From Nitrospirota bacterium (GTDB lineage Bacteria > Nitrospirota > JACRHL01): a stretch of DNA of 64,000 nucleotides. The notes below the pieces were generated by a model. That model saw only the letters and a program-made list of their open reading frames with translations, made no database searches and was not told the DNA's origin. Shown in pieces: positions 28,899 to 56,968 of the stretch (positions are counted from its first letter, which is position 1; every line of letters starts with the position of its first letter). The stretch is taken from contig JAOUFN010000002.1 of NCBI GenBank assembly GCA_029858285.1, positions 9,842 to 73,841 of the forward strand, written 5' to 3'. The position numbers and the translations under genes are program-made.

Positions 28899-29135
28899 CA
28901 CGGAAAGGGAAAATAACCGCTCACGGCACCACGCAAAACAGTGCCCGGGTGGCCACCCGGACATGCCCCGGACATGCAGTGTTCATCGGCATGAAAACGC
29001 TCAAGTAACGGACAAATAATTCCGAAGCGTACAACATAATCGGAACCGCGCGTTTGTCGCTGCGCCAGGTGATGCATCTCAACAAGGCCCACCCGACCCT
29101 TATTTTCCCCTCTCACTCCTGATCATGACGTACCC

Positions 29136-30713
29136 ATGACCCTGTTTGCACGCCTCACCGCCGCCCTGATCCTGGCCTCCGCCGCCGGGGGCACCGCGCT
29201 GGCGGTGCTGTATTCGGGGGTTCTGCCCTACGGCACGGCGGGGCTGGTCATCTCCGCGCTGCTGTTGATGGGCACCGCGGGGCTGGCGCGCTGGGTGATT
29301 CGCCCGTTGCAGAACGACCTCCGGCGGGGCGGCAGCGGGCGGAACGATATCGACCAAAGCCACGTTGCGGACGACCCGTGGGCAGAGGCGGCGCTGCACG
29401 GCAACCAAGCCTGGGACGAACTGATGGCGCGGCTGCACCACTACGGCTACGGTCCGGGCACGCCCGGCGACACACGGCCGGGGCTGCCCGCCAACCCGCT
29501 GCTGGCATGCCTGTTTCAGGCCGCCAGCACCGACGTTGCCAGCCACTCCCACGAGGCCTTCGTATCGCGCCTCTTTTCCGACTGGATCAACGACGGCACC
29601 CTGCGGGCGGTGGCGCTGGCCCAGGGGGCACGCCACACGGTGTCGTTCCTGGCCCACTGCCCCCCCGGCCTGCGCCCCCTGCACCAGGAAGACATCCCCC
29701 CGGAAATCCGCAAACTGCCCGCCACCGCCCCGCAACCCAAAGTGGTGACCACCGACACGGCGGTGTGGGCGGCCTTCCCCACGGGTCCGGCCCCGGCGCA
29801 CCCCGGCGACCACACCAACAGCGCACCCCGCAACCTGATGGTGGCCTGGCCGGAGGATCACCGCGTCGAGCTTCAGGAATTGATCGCTCTGGCCACCGTG
29901 GCCCGCTACATTGGCGCCCGTGGCCACATTGCCGCGGCAATGAGCCGACCCCAGACCCACAGTGTGCCACCGGCGGCGGATCTGCAGGCCCACCTGTTTG
30001 CCTACCTGGGGTTGCGCCTGCACGATCTGGTGCGGGAGGTCGAGGAATTCTGCAACGCCGTCCACCGCGCCGCCCAGGGCGATTCCGCCTCGCTGCCCGC
30101 GTCCCTCGACGCCCAGGGGCGCCGCCTGCGGGAACGCCTGACCGACTTGCTCCACGGCGCCGACGGCGGCTGGCTGCCCGCCCCCGGAACGCACTGCCCG
30201 GTGTTCCTCCCGTCGCTGATCGAACAGGTGCTGCTGCCCTACCGGAATGAAATGGAACGGGGCCACATCACCCTGCGCTGCGACACCCGCGGCGCCGGGA
30301 AGCCGGTCACCACCGATCCGGTGGCGCTGTCGGCGATCATGGACGCCCTGATCTCCAACGCGGTACGCTTTACTCCGGACCACGGGCGCATTGTCCTCAG
30401 GGTGACCCGACTGGACGACGGTCGGCAGGGGGAGCTGGTGGTCGCTGTGCGCGACTCCGGCGTCGGCCTCTCCCCCGACAGCGCCGGACACCTCGGGGAG
30501 GCGTTTTTTCAGGGGCCGGAGGCGGCCCGGCGCATGGGCTCCGGACACGGGCTGGGGCTGGCCCTCGCCACGCGGCTGGCGGAACGGCTGAACGGCAGCC
30601 TGAACGGCGCGGGAAACGACACGGGGAACCGCAAGGGCAGCACCTTCGTGCTGCGGATTCCCCTTCATCCAGTCACCTCCCCCAACCGGGAGACGCTGGT
30701 CAAGGCGGCTTGA
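29136..30713 (+). CDS. Membrane histidine-kinase-like protein with ATP-binding boxes but no phospho-acceptor His
   Basis: Two N-terminal TM helices; N box LISNAVRF, G1 VRDSGVG, F box EAFFQ, G2 GHGLGLAL; H-box position reads LFAYLGLRLHDLV. Confidence 0.8.
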   Translation: MTLFARLTAALILASAAGGTALAVLYSGVLPYGTAGLVISALLLMGTAGLARWVIRPLQNDLRRGGSGRNDIDQSHVADDPWAEAALHGNQAWDELMARLHHYGYGPGTPGDTRPGLPANPLLACLFQAASTDVASHSHEAFVSRLFSDWINDGTLRAVALAQGARHTVSFLAHCPPGLRPLHQEDIPPEIRKLPATAPQPKVVTTDTAVWAAFPTGPAPAHPGDHTNSAPRNLMVAWPEDHRVELQELIALATVARYIGARGHIAAAMSRPQTHSVPPAADLQAHLFAYLGLRLHDLVREVEEFCNAVHRAAQGDSASLPASLDAQGRRLRERLTDLLHGADGGWLPAPGTHCPVFLPSLIEQVLLPYRNEMERGHITLRCDTRGAGKPVTTDPVALSAIMDALISNAVRFTPDHGRIVLRVTRLDDGRQGELVVAVRDSGVGLSPDSAGHLGEAFFQGPEAARRMGSGHGLGLALATRLAERLNGSLNGAGNDTGNRKGSTFVLRIPLHPVTSPNRETLVKAA

Positions 30714-30716
30714 CAC

Positions 30717-31397
30717 ATGGACCACCCGGCAGACACCACCTCCCCCCGTCCCCTCGATGCCCCCCGCCCCGGCGGCGCCTCCCCCACGGAGTCCGAGCGG
30801 GAACTGCTGCAACTCGCGGTGTCCCTGCTCAACCACGACCTGCGCTCCCCGATCCACGCCATTCTGGGCTTTTCCGAACTGCTCACCATGCGCGACGGCT
30901 CCCCGGAGGAGATTCACCGCTACGCCGAGATGATCGGCCACGGCGGTGAACAGCTCATGCACCAGGTGGACCAGATTGTCGGGCTGATGCGTGCGGTGAT
31001 GGGGCAAACCGCCTGGGGGTTTGCCGAAACGCCCCTGACCGTGATTCTGGGAGCGGTTGCCCCGGAAGGCGTTGTCATCGGCGTCGCCAAAGGCGACACC
31101 ACCGGAACGGTCCGCTGGGACCCGGAGCGCATGGGCGGTGCCCTGGGCGACCTGCGCGACCACGGCCGCCAGGCCTCGGGCGACGAAACCTTTGCCGCCG
31201 ACGCCGACGCCAGTCGGGTGCGCATCCGCATCGGCCAACCGCTGGGGGCGTTGCACCCGGTGGACATCAACTTCCGCAATGCCGCCGTGCAGTACGCCGC
31301 CCAAGTGGTCACCGCCCACCACGGCACCCTGCTGGCGGACCAAGGCGGTTTCGGCTTTTCCCTGGATATTCCCCGCTACCCGGACCTGGGGGCGTAG
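30717..31397 (+). CDS. Histidine phosphotransfer-like protein: intact HisKA H-box, degenerate ATP-binding domain
   Basis: LLNHDLRSPIHAILGFSELL; no recognisable N/G1/G2 boxes; starts 4 nt after the upstream stop. Confidence 0.78.
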   Translation: MDHPADTTSPRPLDAPRPGGASPTESERELLQLAVSLLNHDLRSPIHAILGFSELLTMRDGSPEEIHRYAEMIGHGGEQLMHQVDQIVGLMRAVMGQTAWGFAETPLTVILGAVAPEGVVIGVAKGDTTGTVRWDPERMGGALGDLRDHGRQASGDETFAADADASRVRIRIGQPLGALHPVDINFRNAAVQYAAQVVTAHHGTLLADQGGFGFSLDIPRYPDLGA

Positions 31398-31454
31398 GCC
31401 CTCGCCGACCGGCAGTGGGGGCCTTCCGAAGATGTCCCCCCCGGCGCCACACCC

Positions 31455-31553
31455 ATGGGGCGGGGTGCCCCCGGCGTCACCGATGGGGCGGGGTGCCCCC
31501 GGCGTCACCGATGGGGCGGGTGCCCCCGGCGTCACCGATGGGGCGGGTGCCCC
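31455..31553. repeat. 27-28 bp tandem repeat, about 3.6 copies, overlapping the fabH stop codon
   Basis: ATGGGGCGGGGTGCCCCCGGCGTCACCG starting at 31455, 31483, 31511 (27 bp) and 31538 (partial). Confidence 0.95.
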
Positions 31554-33721: not shown

Positions 33722-34054
33722 CCTGGGCTCCTTGGGTGTCCGGTCACATCCTGTGCCGGATCTACGGCTGCCCGCAGGCGGCGAAGGTGCCGGTCCGGGG
33801 CGCAGCGACCGGACAGACTGCAACCGCTGTGCCAGCGCGTAACGGCCCGGACAATTCGATGCAATGCATTGTATTTAATGAAATGCCGAAACAACGGAAA
33901 TGCGCCACCGGGGCCTCTCCGGGGGTGGCCGGGAGGGTTCGTTTCACCCGCACGGCGCCGTCACGGGTAGGTTTCACCCGCACGGATGCGGCGCACTGCC
34001 TCCCGCCGATAGCGGTTGACGTTGCCGTACGCCGCGCCCGATAATCGGGTACCT

Positions 34055-34549
34055 ATGAACGAATCGGCCCAACAGATCCCCGACAGCGGACAACTCGGCA
34101 CCCTGCCCCTGATCCACATTCTCGAGCATTTTGTGGACAAGGGGGTGACCGGCACCCTGGCGGTGCATCAGGACGCGGTGGTCAAGGCGATTTTTCTGCG
34201 CGACGGCGAGGTGGTGTTTGCCACCTCCACCAAGAAGATGGATCGTCTGGGCGAAGTGCTGGTGCGCACCGGGGTGATTTCGGCCTCGGCCCACGATGCC
34301 GCCACCAAGTCCATGCAGCAGAGCGGCAAACGCGAGGGGGAAACCCTGGTGGACATGGGCATCCTCACCCCCAAGGGGCTGTTCGAGGCCCTCAAGGTGC
34401 AGGTGGAGGAGATCATCCTCTCCATGTTCTTGTGGGATCAGGGCAAGTATCAGTTCATGCCGGGACGTCTGCCGGCCCACGTGGTGCCCCTGCCGGTGCG
34501 CATGGACCAGCTTCTGCCCCGCGCCCTGGACCGATTGGGCGGTCAGTAG
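34055..34549 (+). CDS. Stand-alone DUF4388 (PatA-N-like) protein
   Basis: GQLGTLPLIHIL, TGTLAV, IFLRDGEVVFA, RLGEVLV, FLWDQGKYQF. Confidence 0.8.
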   Translation: MNESAQQIPDSGQLGTLPLIHILEHFVDKGVTGTLAVHQDAVVKAIFLRDGEVVFATSTKKMDRLGEVLVRTGVISASAHDAATKSMQQSGKREGETLVDMGILTPKGLFEALKVQVEEIILSMFLWDQGKYQFMPGRLPAHVVPLPVRMDQLLPRALDRLGGQ

Positions 34550-34655
34550 GCATCGCCCGATTGGGCGGTCAGCAGGCATCGCCCGATTGGGCGGTCAGCA
34601 GGCATCGCCCGATTGGGCGGTCAGCAGGCATCGCCCGATTGGGCGGTCAGCAGGC
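34531..34655. repeat. 26-bp tandem repeat, about 4.8 copies
   Basis: CCGATTGGGCGGTCAG(T/C)AGGCATCGC starting at 34531, 34557, 34583, 34609, 34635. Confidence 0.97.
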
Positions 34656-37743: not shown

Positions 37744-37820
<77 letters not shown>

Positions 37821-37894
37821 CCTTGCCCCGCAAGAGCGGCGGTTTCCACGGGGAGCGAATGGACGCGGGTGGCGCCCGCACGCGGACACGGTTT

Positions 37895-37971
<77 letters not shown>

Positions 37972-38054
37972 TTTTCCGGCGCCCTGCGAGGTGGCAGACG
38001 GCAAAACACCGCCCCGGCGGCCCCGTCCGGGGGCACCTGGCGGCAAAAGATTGT

Positions 38055-38131
38055 GGTGGGCGTAGCTCAGTCGGTAGAGCCCCGGATTGTGGTTCCGGTT
38101 GTCGCGGGTTCGAGCCCCGTCGCTCACCCCA
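38055..38131 (+). tRNA. tRNA-His(GTG)
   Basis: G-1, anticodon arm CCGGA-TT-GTG-GT-TCCGG, C discriminator, CCA. Confidence 0.97.
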
Positions 38132-48821: not shown

Positions 48822-50209
48822 CGCCGCCCTCCGGACTTTGGCCCCGATCTGGATCCCGGCTTCGGCCCCGGCTTCGGACCGGGACCACCGCTGCCGCCGC
48901 GACCTCCCCGTGGGGGAGGGCCACCGGCATCCCGGTCACGACGCGGCGGGCCGCTTCGACCGGCACGATCAGGACGGTCGGCCCGGTCGGTGGGGCCAGT
49001 CCGATCCGTGCGTTCGGGGCGGGTCACCCGGCGGCCACCACGCCCCTCCTCGGCAAATCGCCCGTGCGGACGCCCCTCCGGTTCCTCCCGCCGGTTGCGG
49101 ATGCGCCCCCGTGGAGGCGGTCCGGCGTCCCGGTCACGCGGATCCCGGTCACGCGGATCCCGGTCACGCGGATCCCGGTCACGCGGATCCCGGTCGCGCG
49201 GGTCCCGGTCGCGCGGGTCCCGGTCGCGCGGGTCCCGGTCGCGCGGGTCCCGGTCGCGCGGGTCCCGGTCGCGCGGGTCCCGGTCGCGCGGGTCCCGGTC
49301 ACGCGGATCCCGGTCGCGCGGGTCCCGGTCATAAAACTCCCGCCGGGGCGACTCCTGCCTGAACTCTTCCCGCCGCCGGGCCGGGCGACGCGGGGGCCGC
49401 TGGGTCGGCTCGGCCTTTGCCGCCCGTTCCGCCAACGCCGCCCGCTCCGCCCGCGCCGAGCGTTTGACCACCGGTGTCGGTTCCGCCACCGGCTTTTCCG
49501 CGTCGGGGACCGGAATGGGCCGCCGCCCCTTTTCCTTGTACATGATGAACAGGTAGTTGAAGCCGCGCAGCAGGTAATTGCCCTCCACCGCCGAGGTGTG
49601 CCAGTGGTTGCGCATCAGGGTGCGGTTGTGGCGGCACACCGCCACAATGTCCACCGGCGTGAAATGCCGGCACAGCGCCCCGAACAGCTTGAAGCCGATG
49701 GCCTCGAACGGCTTGCCCAGTTCAAAGGAATCGCTCACGTACAGGGCCATGAAGCGCTCCGGGCGCAGGACGCGGTCCATGTCGGCGATGGCCGCCTCCA
49801 TGGCCGGATAGTAGGCGTCGCCCCGGGCGTCCAGTTCGCCGATGCAGTCGGGGCGGCCCGAGTAGCGCACGTGGTTCGAATAGGGCGGGTCCACGAACAC
49901 AAAGTCGGCCTTGGCGTCCTCCAGGGGCAATTTGCGCGCGTCGGCGCGAAAGATGTCGGGGCGGGAGGGGGCCACGTCGTACCCCAGGGCGCGGCGGTCC
50001 ATCTGGCGCGCCACATCCAGTGTGGTGCCGCTGCCGCACATGGGGTCCACCACCAGTTGTCCGGGGCGGGTGTAGCGCGCCAGCAGGTTGGCGATCAGGT
50101 AACTGGGGGTGGAGCCAACGTAGGCATTGTCCCCCTGCCCCCCCTCGCCGTGGGTGCGCGACGCATAGTCCCACAAGGTGGTGGTCATTACCGGCAGATC
50201 GCCGTCCAT
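48818..50209 (-). CDS. SAM-dependent amino-methyltransferase (DPPY type) with a long Arg/Asp-rich low-complexity tail
   Basis: VVDPMCGSGTT (motif I) precedes FVFVDPPY (motif IV); (DRDPR)13 tail; start approximate. Confidence 0.82.
   Translation of the reverse strand: MDGDLPVMTTTLWDYASRTHGEGGQGDNAYVGSTPSYLIANLLARYTRPGQLVVDPMCGSGTTLDVARQMDRRALGYDVAPSRPDIFRADARKLPLEDAKADFVFVDPPYSNHVRYSGRPDCIGELDARGDAYYPAMEAAIADMDRVLRPERFMALYVSDSFELGKPFEAIGFKLFGALCRHFTPVDIVAVCRHNRTLMRNHWHTSAVEGNYLLRGFNYLFIMYKEKGRRPIPVPDAEKPVAEPTPVVKRSARAERAALAERAAKAEPTQRPPRRPARRREEFRQESPRREFYDRDPRDRDPRDRDPRDRDPRDRDPRDRDPRDRDPRDRDPRDRDPRDRDPRDRDPRDRDPRDRDPRDRDAGPPPRGRIRNRREEPEGRPHGRFAEEGRGGRRVTRPERTDRTGPTDRADRPDRAGRSGPPRRDRDAGGPPPRGGRGGSGGPGPKPGPKPGSRSGPKSGGRR
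49126..49330. repeat. 15-bp coding tandem repeat, about 13.7 copies, encoding DRDPR
   Basis: G(A/G)TCCCGGTC(A/G)CGCG repeated; variation confined to synonymous positions on the minus strand. Confidence 0.98.
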
Positions 50210-56108: not shown

Positions 56109-56968
56109 CCGGCGGAGGGCGCCCCCCGGCGGAATTTGTGGAGGGCAGAGCCGGGGCGCTCCCCGGCCCGGCACCCCCACGCCCGCGTTGCCTCCCACGT
56201 CGATTCCGGCCCCCCCTATCCCCAGCCCTTTCCCCCCCCAATGGGGAGGAAAGGGAGGTGCTGTGCGCACGGCACGTGATGCGGAAAGTGATGGATTAGA
56301 TTTGTCCCGCGTGAGACCGGCTGGAATAGCCGTCACGTATGGTTTGTCGTCGAGCGGTGACACTGGCAGGGGGACGGAAGAAAACGGAAGAAAAGACGCG
56401 GCCAGATTCGCGATGGACGGGGCCGCGCCATATGTTTTACGCGAATATGCCCGCCGGGGCTCCCCGGCCCCGTACCCCCGTTTCCGCGTTGCCTCCCACG
56501 TCGATTCCGGCCCCCCCTATCCCCAGCCCTTTCCCCCCCAACGGGGGGGAAAGGGAGGTGCTGTGCGCACGGCACGTGATGCGGAAAGTGACTGATCGGA
56601 TTTGTCCCGCGTGGGACCGGCTGGAATAGCCGTCACGTATAGTTTGTCGTCGATCGGTGACACTGGCAGGGGGACGGAAAAAGCGGAAGAAAAAGGCGCG
56701 GCCGGATTCGCGATGGACGGGGCCGTGCCACGGGTTTTACGCGAATACCGCTGCGGGCCGTGCCCGCCGCCTGCCGGGGCTCCCCGGCCGCGATGAAGCT
56801 GGCCGCGCCACGGGTTTTGCGCGAATACCGCCGGGGGGCGTCCCCCCCTGGGTTTTACGCGAATACGCCCGCCGGGGCTCCCCGGCCGCGATGGACGGGG
56901 CCGTGCCACGGGTTTTACGCGAATACCGCTGCGGGCCGTGCCCGCCGCCCGCCGGGGCTTCCCGGCTA
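56109..56968 (-). repeat. Right modular REP/REPIN-like array, inverted relative to the left array
   Basis: Long modules 56187-56447 and 56488-56748 (301-bp period); 39-bp units near 56408, 56708, 56790, 56888; terminal GGGGCTTCCCGGCTA. Confidence 0.95.

Follow-up and report, generated by a model that had tools for sequence, protein, structure and literature searches.

In the 64,000-nt stretch of Nitrospirota bacterium DNA analysed here (GenBank assembly GCA_029858285.1, contig JAOUFN010000002.1, positions 9,842 to 73,841; the whole stretch is called the window), two adjacent genes on the + strand, P1 and P2, encode histidine kinase paralogues in which complementary sites have been lost. P1 (29136..30713, 525 aa) is a membrane-anchored protein that has intact ATP-binding boxes and Leu in place of the canonical phospho-acceptor His, and P2 (30717..31397, 226 aa) is a soluble protein that has a textbook phospho-acceptor His and a CA domain from which the ATP-binding residues are gone. 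With the ATP-binding and phospho-His functions on separate polypeptides, as they are in split histidine kinases, the two proteins probably depend on each other to function, and the pair is a natural variant of these known kinases and not a new kind of system. We tentatively favour the reading that in this genome the CA domain of P1 phosphorylates His40 of P2 in trans, and that this would be a lineage-specific activity and not the obligate function of the family. The counts given below refer to nine lineages in which the pair was found, namely, the window, L001, L117, L118, L114, L119, L120, L116, and L005.

Complementary motif states of P1 and P2

P1 was characterized from its open reading frame (ORF), Pfam, an AlphaFold2 (AF2) model, and Foldseek. 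In Pfam it matched HATPase_c at residues 394-511 (E 1e-19) and it had no HisKA match at E<=1. In NCBIfam both P1 and P2 gave partial, sub-threshold matches to many kinases and nothing else, and public records carry just the label 'ATP-binding protein' for P1 and 'hypothetical protein' for P2. The AF2 model of P1 (predicted local distance difference test, pLDDT, 76) matched the HK853, WalK, and DivL cores in Foldseek with TMt up to 0.75. The protein begins with a transmembrane helical hairpin (residues ~3-26 and ~30-55, 29142..29300, +), which was seen as AF2 helices 3-26 and 30-70 and as Kyte-Doolittle windows >1.6 over residues 7-55, and which is the most conserved part of P1 across the lineages, the mean pairwise identity being 0.45. 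Because the connecting loop of the hairpin is just 3 residues long, P1 is predicted from the model to have no extracytoplasmic domain. The hairpin is followed by a cytoplasmic GAF/PAS-like alpha/beta sensor domain (residues ~121-270, 29496..29945, +), whose AF2 secondary structure is a-a-b-b-a-b-b-b-a at pLDDT 76-96 and which could be aligned to the GAF domain of P2 orthologues when the two families were compared with hhalign. Then come a DHp helical hairpin (residues 280-313 and 320-344, 29973..30167, +), delimited by AF2 and family alignments, and the CA (HATPase_c) domain (30195..30671, +; pLDDT ~90). The CA domain carries the N, G1, F, and G2 boxes of a class I histidine kinase intact (N408, D440xG442xG444, F457, and G470xG472LG474) and its fold matches that of HK853 and WalK. 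When the sensor and the DHp of P1 and the C-terminal domain of P2 were scanned as isolated segments, no Pfam match was obtained at E<=10.

In a class I histidine kinase the H-box of DHp helix 1 contains the phospho-acceptor His, and P1 does not have it there. In the degenerate H-box of P1, LFAYLGLRLHDLV (residues 287-299, 29994-30032, +), Leu293 (TTG, 30012-30014, +) is on the phospho-His column, and His296-Asp297 (30021-30026, +) is at +3/+4, with His296 at the position of the canonical Arg (the Arg of HELRTP). Leu293 was placed on this column by an ungapped MAFFT alignment with 25 canonical kinases and by an 8-sequence P1 family profile aligned to 54 kinase cores (confidence 9), the P1 family having been enlarged by an exhaustive HMMER search in which the 336 N-terminal residues of P1 were the query and by context look-ups. 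In the L117 orthologue, P0064, the H-box FLAHIGHQLRHSV is an ungapped match to FLAxxSHELRTPL and has its His on the canonical column. In addition, the hydrophobic heptad of P1 (F288, L291, L295, L298/V299, and V302) fits the Leu293 register alone. The alignment LFAYLG-L-RLHDLV, by which an earlier note on the window, made from the sequence, had put Leu at the phospho-His position, was therefore right. Another register, in which His296 is the aligned phospho-His, had been given by hhalign when P1 and its orthologue P0005, to which it is 58% identical, were aligned to the 54 cores; it came with a 3-residue gap and a posterior of ~0.4, and it was overturned by the enlarged family, in which the ungapped register is confident.

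P2 was characterized from its ORF, Pfam, and orthologue alignments. Its sole Pfam family at E<=1 is HisKA (residues 35-88, E 2e-10), and no HATPase_c match was found. The DHp hairpin of P2 (residues ~25-58 and 63-94, 30789..30998, +) has the H-box SLLNHDLRSP, in which the phospho-acceptor is His40 (30834-30836, +), with Asp41 at +1 and Ser44 at +4. The rest of the protein is a pseudo-CA domain (residues ~106-219, 31032..31373, +) that was identified by hhalign, by PDB profile matches, and by a motif table. Its homology to the CA domain is clear from the comparison of the P2 family profile with kinase cores (Prob 99.5%, E 9e-23, 209 columns), and the PDB matches of the profile, among them 3a0r, 9jfj, and DivL, span the whole kinase core. 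In this domain the N-box Asn is absent, the column being His in the window and His, Tyr, Val, Lys, or Arg across the lineages, there is no G1 box, and the F box, the ATP lid, and the G2 box are deleted. Since none of the N, G1, F, and G2 boxes is kept in any of the nine lineages, the CA domain of P2 is predicted to be unable to bind ATP in all of them. The AF2 model of P2, built from a 3-sequence alignment, is poor (pLDDT 45), and the order of its secondary structures nonetheless fits; its Foldseek matches to kinase cores and to ChpT (4fmt) at TM 0.2-0.34 are weak support, the model being poor. These results agree with the earlier note, which had read intact N, G1, F, and G2 boxes in P1, a textbook H-box in P2, and in the C-terminal domain of P2 the outline of a CA fold without N, G1, and G2 residues, and the comparison with Pfam profiles that it had proposed gave HATPase_c alone for P1 and HisKA alone for P2.

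P2 of the window (30717-30800) does not have the ~150-aa N-terminal GAF domain that is carried by seven of the nine P2 proteins and that gave a borderline Pfam GAF match at the N-terminus of a P2 orthologue in the segment scan (E<=10). The other P2 without GAF is that of L119 (L119 5954-6090), whose probable start is a TTG immediately following the stop codon of P1. Because the window and L119 are not each other's sister in the trees, P2 probably lost its GAF domain on two occasions, once in each of these lineages. Two further features of the pair and its relatives were recorded. PDB entry 6nb0_A, a 287-aa 'histidine kinase' with an HDLRSP H-box, matches the P2 family profile (E 2.4e-5), its N-box region (ALWLLVTFAVEAS) seems to be without Asn too, and it may be a structural analogue of the class that has a His and a dead CA domain. 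P1 homologues end in Ala-Ala in seven of nine lineages (window tail at 30702-30710), the tails being VKAA, HLAA, ARAA, GKAA, HRAA, RAAA, and GKAA in the set made up of the window, L117, L114, L119, L120, L116, and L005, with SRTA and EQTV as the exceptions, and the residues before the tail are poorly conserved. This end resembles a ClpXP/ssrA-like degron and the level of P1 may be controlled by proteolysis.

Conservation of the pair in nine lineages

The family is rare, as word-seeded searches of 5.8 billion proteins returned one P1 orthologue and two P2 orthologues, and a profile search added two P2 relatives. Scans of genome and metagenome contigs with H-box peptide patterns returned generic HisKA kinases, save one metagenome-assembled genome (MAG) that was already known. 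From the HMMER search, P0065 (2252 aa, 11 stretches) was discarded as a repeat protein with a chance 'DWINEGTLRAV' motif. Two other P1 relatives, P0070 (275 aa) and P0071 (297 aa), have the transmembrane hairpin and the sensor alone and stop before the DHp, and these may either be fragments from contig ends or true short variants of P1.

All nine lineages are uncultured, two of them being annotated as Nitrospirota/Nitrospirae MAGs, and all have the same gene order, NFACT / P1 P2 / FabH (LpxC). The P1-P2 spacer is -17 (overlap) to +15 nt in eight lineages, and in L119, where it is nominally 127 nt, the gap would vanish if P2 starts, as is likely, at the TTG that immediately follows the stop of P1. 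In the window the spacer is 3 nt (junction TGA-CAC-ATG, 30711-30719) and the two genes are in the same reading frame. A P1-P2 fusion by read-through of this TGA was considered and rejected, as the C-terminal -AA end of P1 is kept and the frames differ in most relatives, and because the frame relation is not conserved, such read-through in the window genome is unlikely. P1 and P2 are never fused in the nine lineages. Conservation of adjacency, which the earlier note had put forward as a check, was thus found throughout, and since adjacency and the state of P2 recur in nine syntenic lineages we take the P1-P2 pattern to be beyond chance. When the two families were compared with hhalign, they were found to be homologous over the sensor, DHp, and CA domains (Prob 89%, E 2e-6), whereas pairwise BLASTP of P1 against a P2 orthologue gave nothing significant, so the paralogy is visible by profile-profile comparison alone. 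P1 and P2 are probably ancient tandem paralogues of one GAF-DHp-CA sensor kinase.

The motifs of the two proteins have fared differently across the lineages. In P2 the H-box NHD(L/M)(R/S)(S/T)P is invariant in 9/9 lineages. In P1 the canonical His is present in L117 only and at that column the others have L, N, E, Q, G, A, or Q, the P1 of L005 being partial and stopping short of it. The N, G1, F, and G2 boxes of P1 are intact in the window, L001, and L117 only. In L118 they are partly decayed (N to D, G1 DAGNA, and lid deleted), and in L114, L119, L120, L116, and L005 they are erased; Pfam HATPase_c was not found in the full-length P1 of L114, L116, L118, L119, and L120. The state of the window, where P1 is His-minus/ATP-plus and P2 is His-plus/ATP-minus, is therefore shared with L001, while P1 is His-plus/ATP-plus in one lineage (L117) and His-minus/ATP-minus in six. 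The complementary pair of the earlier note is exactly as described in the window, but this exact state was found in two of nine lineages.

The window, L001, and L117 form one clade in the neighbour-joining trees of both P1 and P2. Within this clade P1 has diverged to 35-59% identity and its ATP boxes have been kept, and between the window and L001 the P1 CA domain is 0.70 identical with all the boxes kept after the loss of the canonical His. In the sister branch the loss of the His was accompanied by decay of the ATPase, whereas in the window and L001 live-type ATP boxes have outlasted it. Because the boxes are kept in a diverged clade but have decayed in sister lineages, nucleotide binding by P1 is, on this pattern, under selection in the window/L001/L117 clade, and the ATPase would need a substrate. 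The H-box/regulator-docking stretch spans -6 to +18 relative to the His column, and it is here that a response regulator normally makes contact. Its mean pairwise identity is 0.75 among the P2 proteins vs 0.24 among the P1 proteins; between the window and L001 it is 0.88 for P2 and 0.56 for P1. It follows that the sole conserved docking face with a His would be that of P2.

No response regulator gene had been seen in the window in the earlier reading, and this was confirmed, as no receiver (REC) domain was found in a six-frame translation of the 64,000 nt. Likewise, no REC domain was found in 116 kb of orthologous loci, whereas the same hidden Markov model used as a control gave 44 matches in 388 kb of unrelated loci, and there was no hybrid kinase or REC partner at any P1/P2 locus examined. 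Any partners of P2 must therefore be encoded elsewhere in the genome.

Proposed phosphoryl flow and known split kinases

According to the reading that we favour, P1 and P2 would be co-transcribed and probably translationally coupled, and would act as one heteromeric signalling unit. P1 would give the membrane anchor, the cytoplasmic sensor, and the sole working ATP-binding domain, its own canonical acceptor being Leu, and P2 would give His40, the sole canonical phospho-His, followed at +1 by Asp, and also the conserved docking surface of helix 1, its CA domain being a putative nucleotide-blind structural remnant. Within a P1-P2 DHp complex the CA domain of P1 would phosphorylate His40 in trans, P2~P would then hand its phosphoryl group on to a response regulator whose gene is elsewhere in the genome, and unphosphorylated P2 (HDxxS) would probably also dephosphorylate that regulator. 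This last step is suggested by the HDxxS/T of P2, which is near the HE/DxxT/N phosphatase motif (PMC3591291). The domain states, the homology, the adjacency, the conservation pattern, and the lack of a linked regulator are what the data show. Complex formation, for which the invariant adjacency and the conservation pattern are indirect evidence, the direction of phosphoryl flow, and the phosphatase activity are what we infer.

Several observations weigh against this reading. In six lineages P1 is without working ATP boxes and the H-box of P2 is still invariant, which argues that the His of P2 has a role independent of the P1 ATPase. The P1 of L117, although paired with the same dead-ATPase P2, retains a His of its own on the canonical column, which argues that P2 was not originally the obligatory acceptor. 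For these two reasons the obligate two-part kinase of the earlier note does not hold as the conserved function of the module. Moreover, the exact state of the window occurs in just two lineages of a small sample, and a response regulator for the pair was not found in the window or in the orthologous loci. Finally, P1 is 'His-less', as it had been called, with respect to the canonical His, which is replaced by Leu293, but it does have His296-Asp297 one turn down on roughly the same helix face, and these two residues are kept in its closest orthologue. Taking these points together with the conservation of the P2 H-box, the core role of P2 would most simply be to carry phosphoryl groups for an unlinked regulator, to dephosphorylate it, or both, and P1 would be the membrane-bound partner of P2, predicted to be catalytically active in the window clade and a pseudokinase elsewhere.

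A somewhat unlikely but serious alternative is that in the window, too, P1 is a nucleotide-binding pseudokinase that regulates P2 and that there is no transfer from P1 to P2. P1 would then be a DivL-like membrane scaffold or sensor whose CA domain, with nucleotide bound in this genome and dead in most relatives, allosterically controls P2, and P2 would be a ChpT/Spo0B-like phosphotransferase that exchanges phosphoryl groups with REC domains encoded elsewhere, or a dedicated phosphatase that dephosphorylates a regulator. Something of this kind must be near the truth in the six lineages where neither CA domain has an ATP site and the P2 motif NHD(L/M)(R/S)(S/T)P is invariant, and the ChpT-like architecture of P2 (DHp followed by pseudo-CA), its near-phosphatase motif, and DivL being the best PDB sequence match of its profile are all in keeping with it. 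The His of P1 is indeed replaced as in DivL, yet the ATP boxes of P1 appear to be under selection in the clade, which argues for catalysis; this alternative leaves unexplained why four ATP boxes, catalytic residues included, persist in the window, L001, and L117 but decay elsewhere. P2 is moreover derived from HisKA, with no Pfam ChpT (HPTransfase) match and with no ChpT or Spo0B sequence among the PDB profile matches at E<=1, and, as described above, its loci hold no hybrid kinase or REC partner.

It is unlikely that P1 is self-sufficient, its acceptor having shifted by one helical turn to His296, next to which Asp297 would be the acid, and P2 being an accessory phosphatase, sink, or modulator. 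The HD is kept in the window and L001 (RLHDLV / QMHDLV), the two-sequence profile alignment prefers His296 on the His column, the +3 position is solvent-exposed in canonical HisKA, and L117 has a second His, at +4. Against this, the ungapped family alignment places His296 at +3 with high confidence and the heptad fits that register alone, conservation is poor in the helix below His296 (0.24-0.56 identity), unlike that of a regulator-docking surface, and one residue kept between two 58%-identical proteins carries little weight. We know of no class I kinase with a documented acceptor at +3. That the pair consists of decaying, functionless duplicates of a former kinase gene is very improbable: catalytic motifs have been progressively lost across the lineages and the GAF domain of P2 has probably been deleted twice, but both ORFs are intact in nine lineages diverged to 25-35% identity, the P2 H-box is 100% conserved, the P1 ATP boxes are kept within a clade, and synteny and spacing are conserved.

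If P1 does phosphorylate P2, the closest class I precedent is FasB/FasC of Streptococcus pyogenes, which function with FasA and are encoded by adjacent sensor-kinase-like genes (PMC12675982). Two-hybrid data support a FasB/FasC heterodimer and not homodimers, H246 of FasC is required while its kinase domain is dispensable, and the DHp and HATPase domains of FasB suffice (PMC12675982). The authors propose trans-phosphorylation of FasC by FasB and describe FasC as a pseudokinase; FasB keeps a candidate His (H284), and phosphorylation in cis was not excluded (PMC12675982). Like the Fas proteins, P1 and P2 are the products of two adjacent class I sensor-kinase-like genes and the His would be supplied by one partner. 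The differences are that FasC's kinase domain can be dispensed with but is not reported to be without ATP boxes, whereas those of P2 are physically deleted; that FasB retains a candidate His, whereas the canonical His of P1 is replaced; and that both Fas proteins are membrane-bound with fasA in the operon, whereas P2 is soluble and there is no linked regulator. In CheA3/CheA4 of Rhodobacter sphaeroides, ATP binding and phospho-His are on two complexed proteins, neither of which autophosphorylates alone, and the His-bearing partner is also a phosphatase (PMC3591291). It has also been reported that 3.66% of HisKA proteins have no HATPase domain (PMC3591291). Unlike the window pair, CheA3 and CheA4 are class II (CheA) proteins encoded in a chemotaxis cluster, they have the His on an HPt-like P1 domain, and they are without whole domains, whereas P1 and P2 of the window keep dead copies.

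HK1/HK2-TcrA of Mycobacterium tuberculosis (Rv0600c/Rv0601c/Rv0602c) has two adjacent sensor-kinase products and one regulator. HK1 is said, in the 2007 work of Shrivastava et al., to carry the ATP-binding domain and HK2 the phospho-His. This is a simple domain split with an adjacent regulator gene, whereas P1 and P2 both keep the DHp and CA fold with complementary dead sites. In view of these three precedents, the novelty that the earlier note implied is less than it seemed. EnvZ and NtrB mutants provide a laboratory parallel, since His-minus and ATP-site-minus subunits restore phosphorylation in trans in vitro. Separated HisKA and HATPase polypeptides of EnvZ also stay active (cited in PMC3591291). 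These are laboratory constructs, whereas the window pair is natural and its state is conserved in at least two lineages.

P2 also resembles ChpT of Caulobacter and Spo0B of Bacillus, as it has a His-bearing DHp-like hairpin and a CA-like domain that is predicted to be nucleotide-blind. It differs from them in that ChpT and Spo0B belong to other sequence families and take phosphate from REC domains in phosphorelays, whereas P2 is a HisKA protein with a textbook H-box, and in that most P2 orthologues carry a GAF sensor. DivL of Caulobacter, which has Tyr instead of the His, and RetS of Pseudomonas, which forms DHp heteromers with GacS, have the histidine kinase fold and signal through binding to other kinases or to regulators instead of by autophosphorylation. 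The PDB matches include both, and unlike them P1 retains a fully canonical ATP site and is always encoded next to a dedicated partner that bears the His. What appears to be distinctive here is that full-length paralogues have reciprocal dead sites, that P2 is soluble and usually GAF-regulated, that no regulator is linked, and that an evolutionary series from kinase to double pseudokinase seems to be visible.

Gene neighbourhood and meaning of the series

The window has a G+C content of ~68%. Upstream of P1, in the intergenic region from which P1 and the NFACT gene diverge, a consensus scan found one promoter-like site, ATGAAA-18-AATAAT (28991..29020, +), where 0.3 were expected; it is a sequence match alone. 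The order of the flanking genes by Pfam is GH77 4-alpha-glucanotransferase, Urate_ox_N, NFACT, P1, P2, FabH-like, LpxC, DUF4388/PATAN protein, and DUF2232, with the FabH-like gene and P2 being convergent. Since the neighbours are housekeeping genes (FabH, LpxC, NFACT, and ribosomal proteins), the P1/P2 module is, judging from gene content, a core rather than a mobile signalling element of these uncultured lineages.

In PatA-type regulators a PATAN domain usually occurs in fusion with a receiver domain. The DUF4388/PATAN protein of the window (34016-34549, 177 aa, E 9e-19) is without a receiver domain, and its gene is at the same position in the relatives with a long enough locus (L001/L004, L114, L116, and L119). 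Four relatives have an ORF of 30-31 aa immediately upstream of Urate_ox_N (L001 5617-5709, L114 4276-4368, L116 4780-4875, and L119 2271-2363). A tandem repeat of 28 nt x 3.8 (97% matches) at 31450-31553 is between P2 and the FabH-like gene and enters the 3' end of the latter, and another of 26 nt x 4.8 (98%) at 34531-34655 is over the 3' end of the DUF4388 gene toward the DUF2232 gene. More tandem arrays are at 49127-49330 (15 nt x 13.6) and 56158-56747 (300 nt x 2), and a tRNA cluster, Pro(TGG)-Arg(TCT)-His(GTG), is at 37744-38131 on the + strand.

If it is true that P1 phosphorylates P2, the pair would be a natural counterpart of the EnvZ/NtrB complementation, with the His and the ATP site on different full-length subunits, and heteromeric trans-phosphorylation would be forced in a class I kinase. 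A bolder and rather doubtful proposal is that the pair is an undescribed two-protein unit, seen so far in uncultured bacteria alone, in which the window is a rare obligate heterodimeric-kinase intermediate and the sister lineages are an ATP-independent pseudokinase pair. According to this proposal, a HisKA paralogue, P2, would have independently become a GAF-regulated, ChpT-like His carrier that is permanently paired with P1, and the series would run from kinase to split kinase to pseudokinase pair. The nine lineages show three states, a full kinase with a His-only partner, a complementary pair, and two ATP-blind proteins with an invariant His, and this series is a testable path from a histidine kinase to a pseudokinase and a phosphotransferase. 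It suggests how ChpT-like proteins could arise from HisKA kinases. It also bears on annotation, as pipelines that count a kinase only where HisKA and HATPase_c occur in the same protein would overlook such pairs or score them wrongly.

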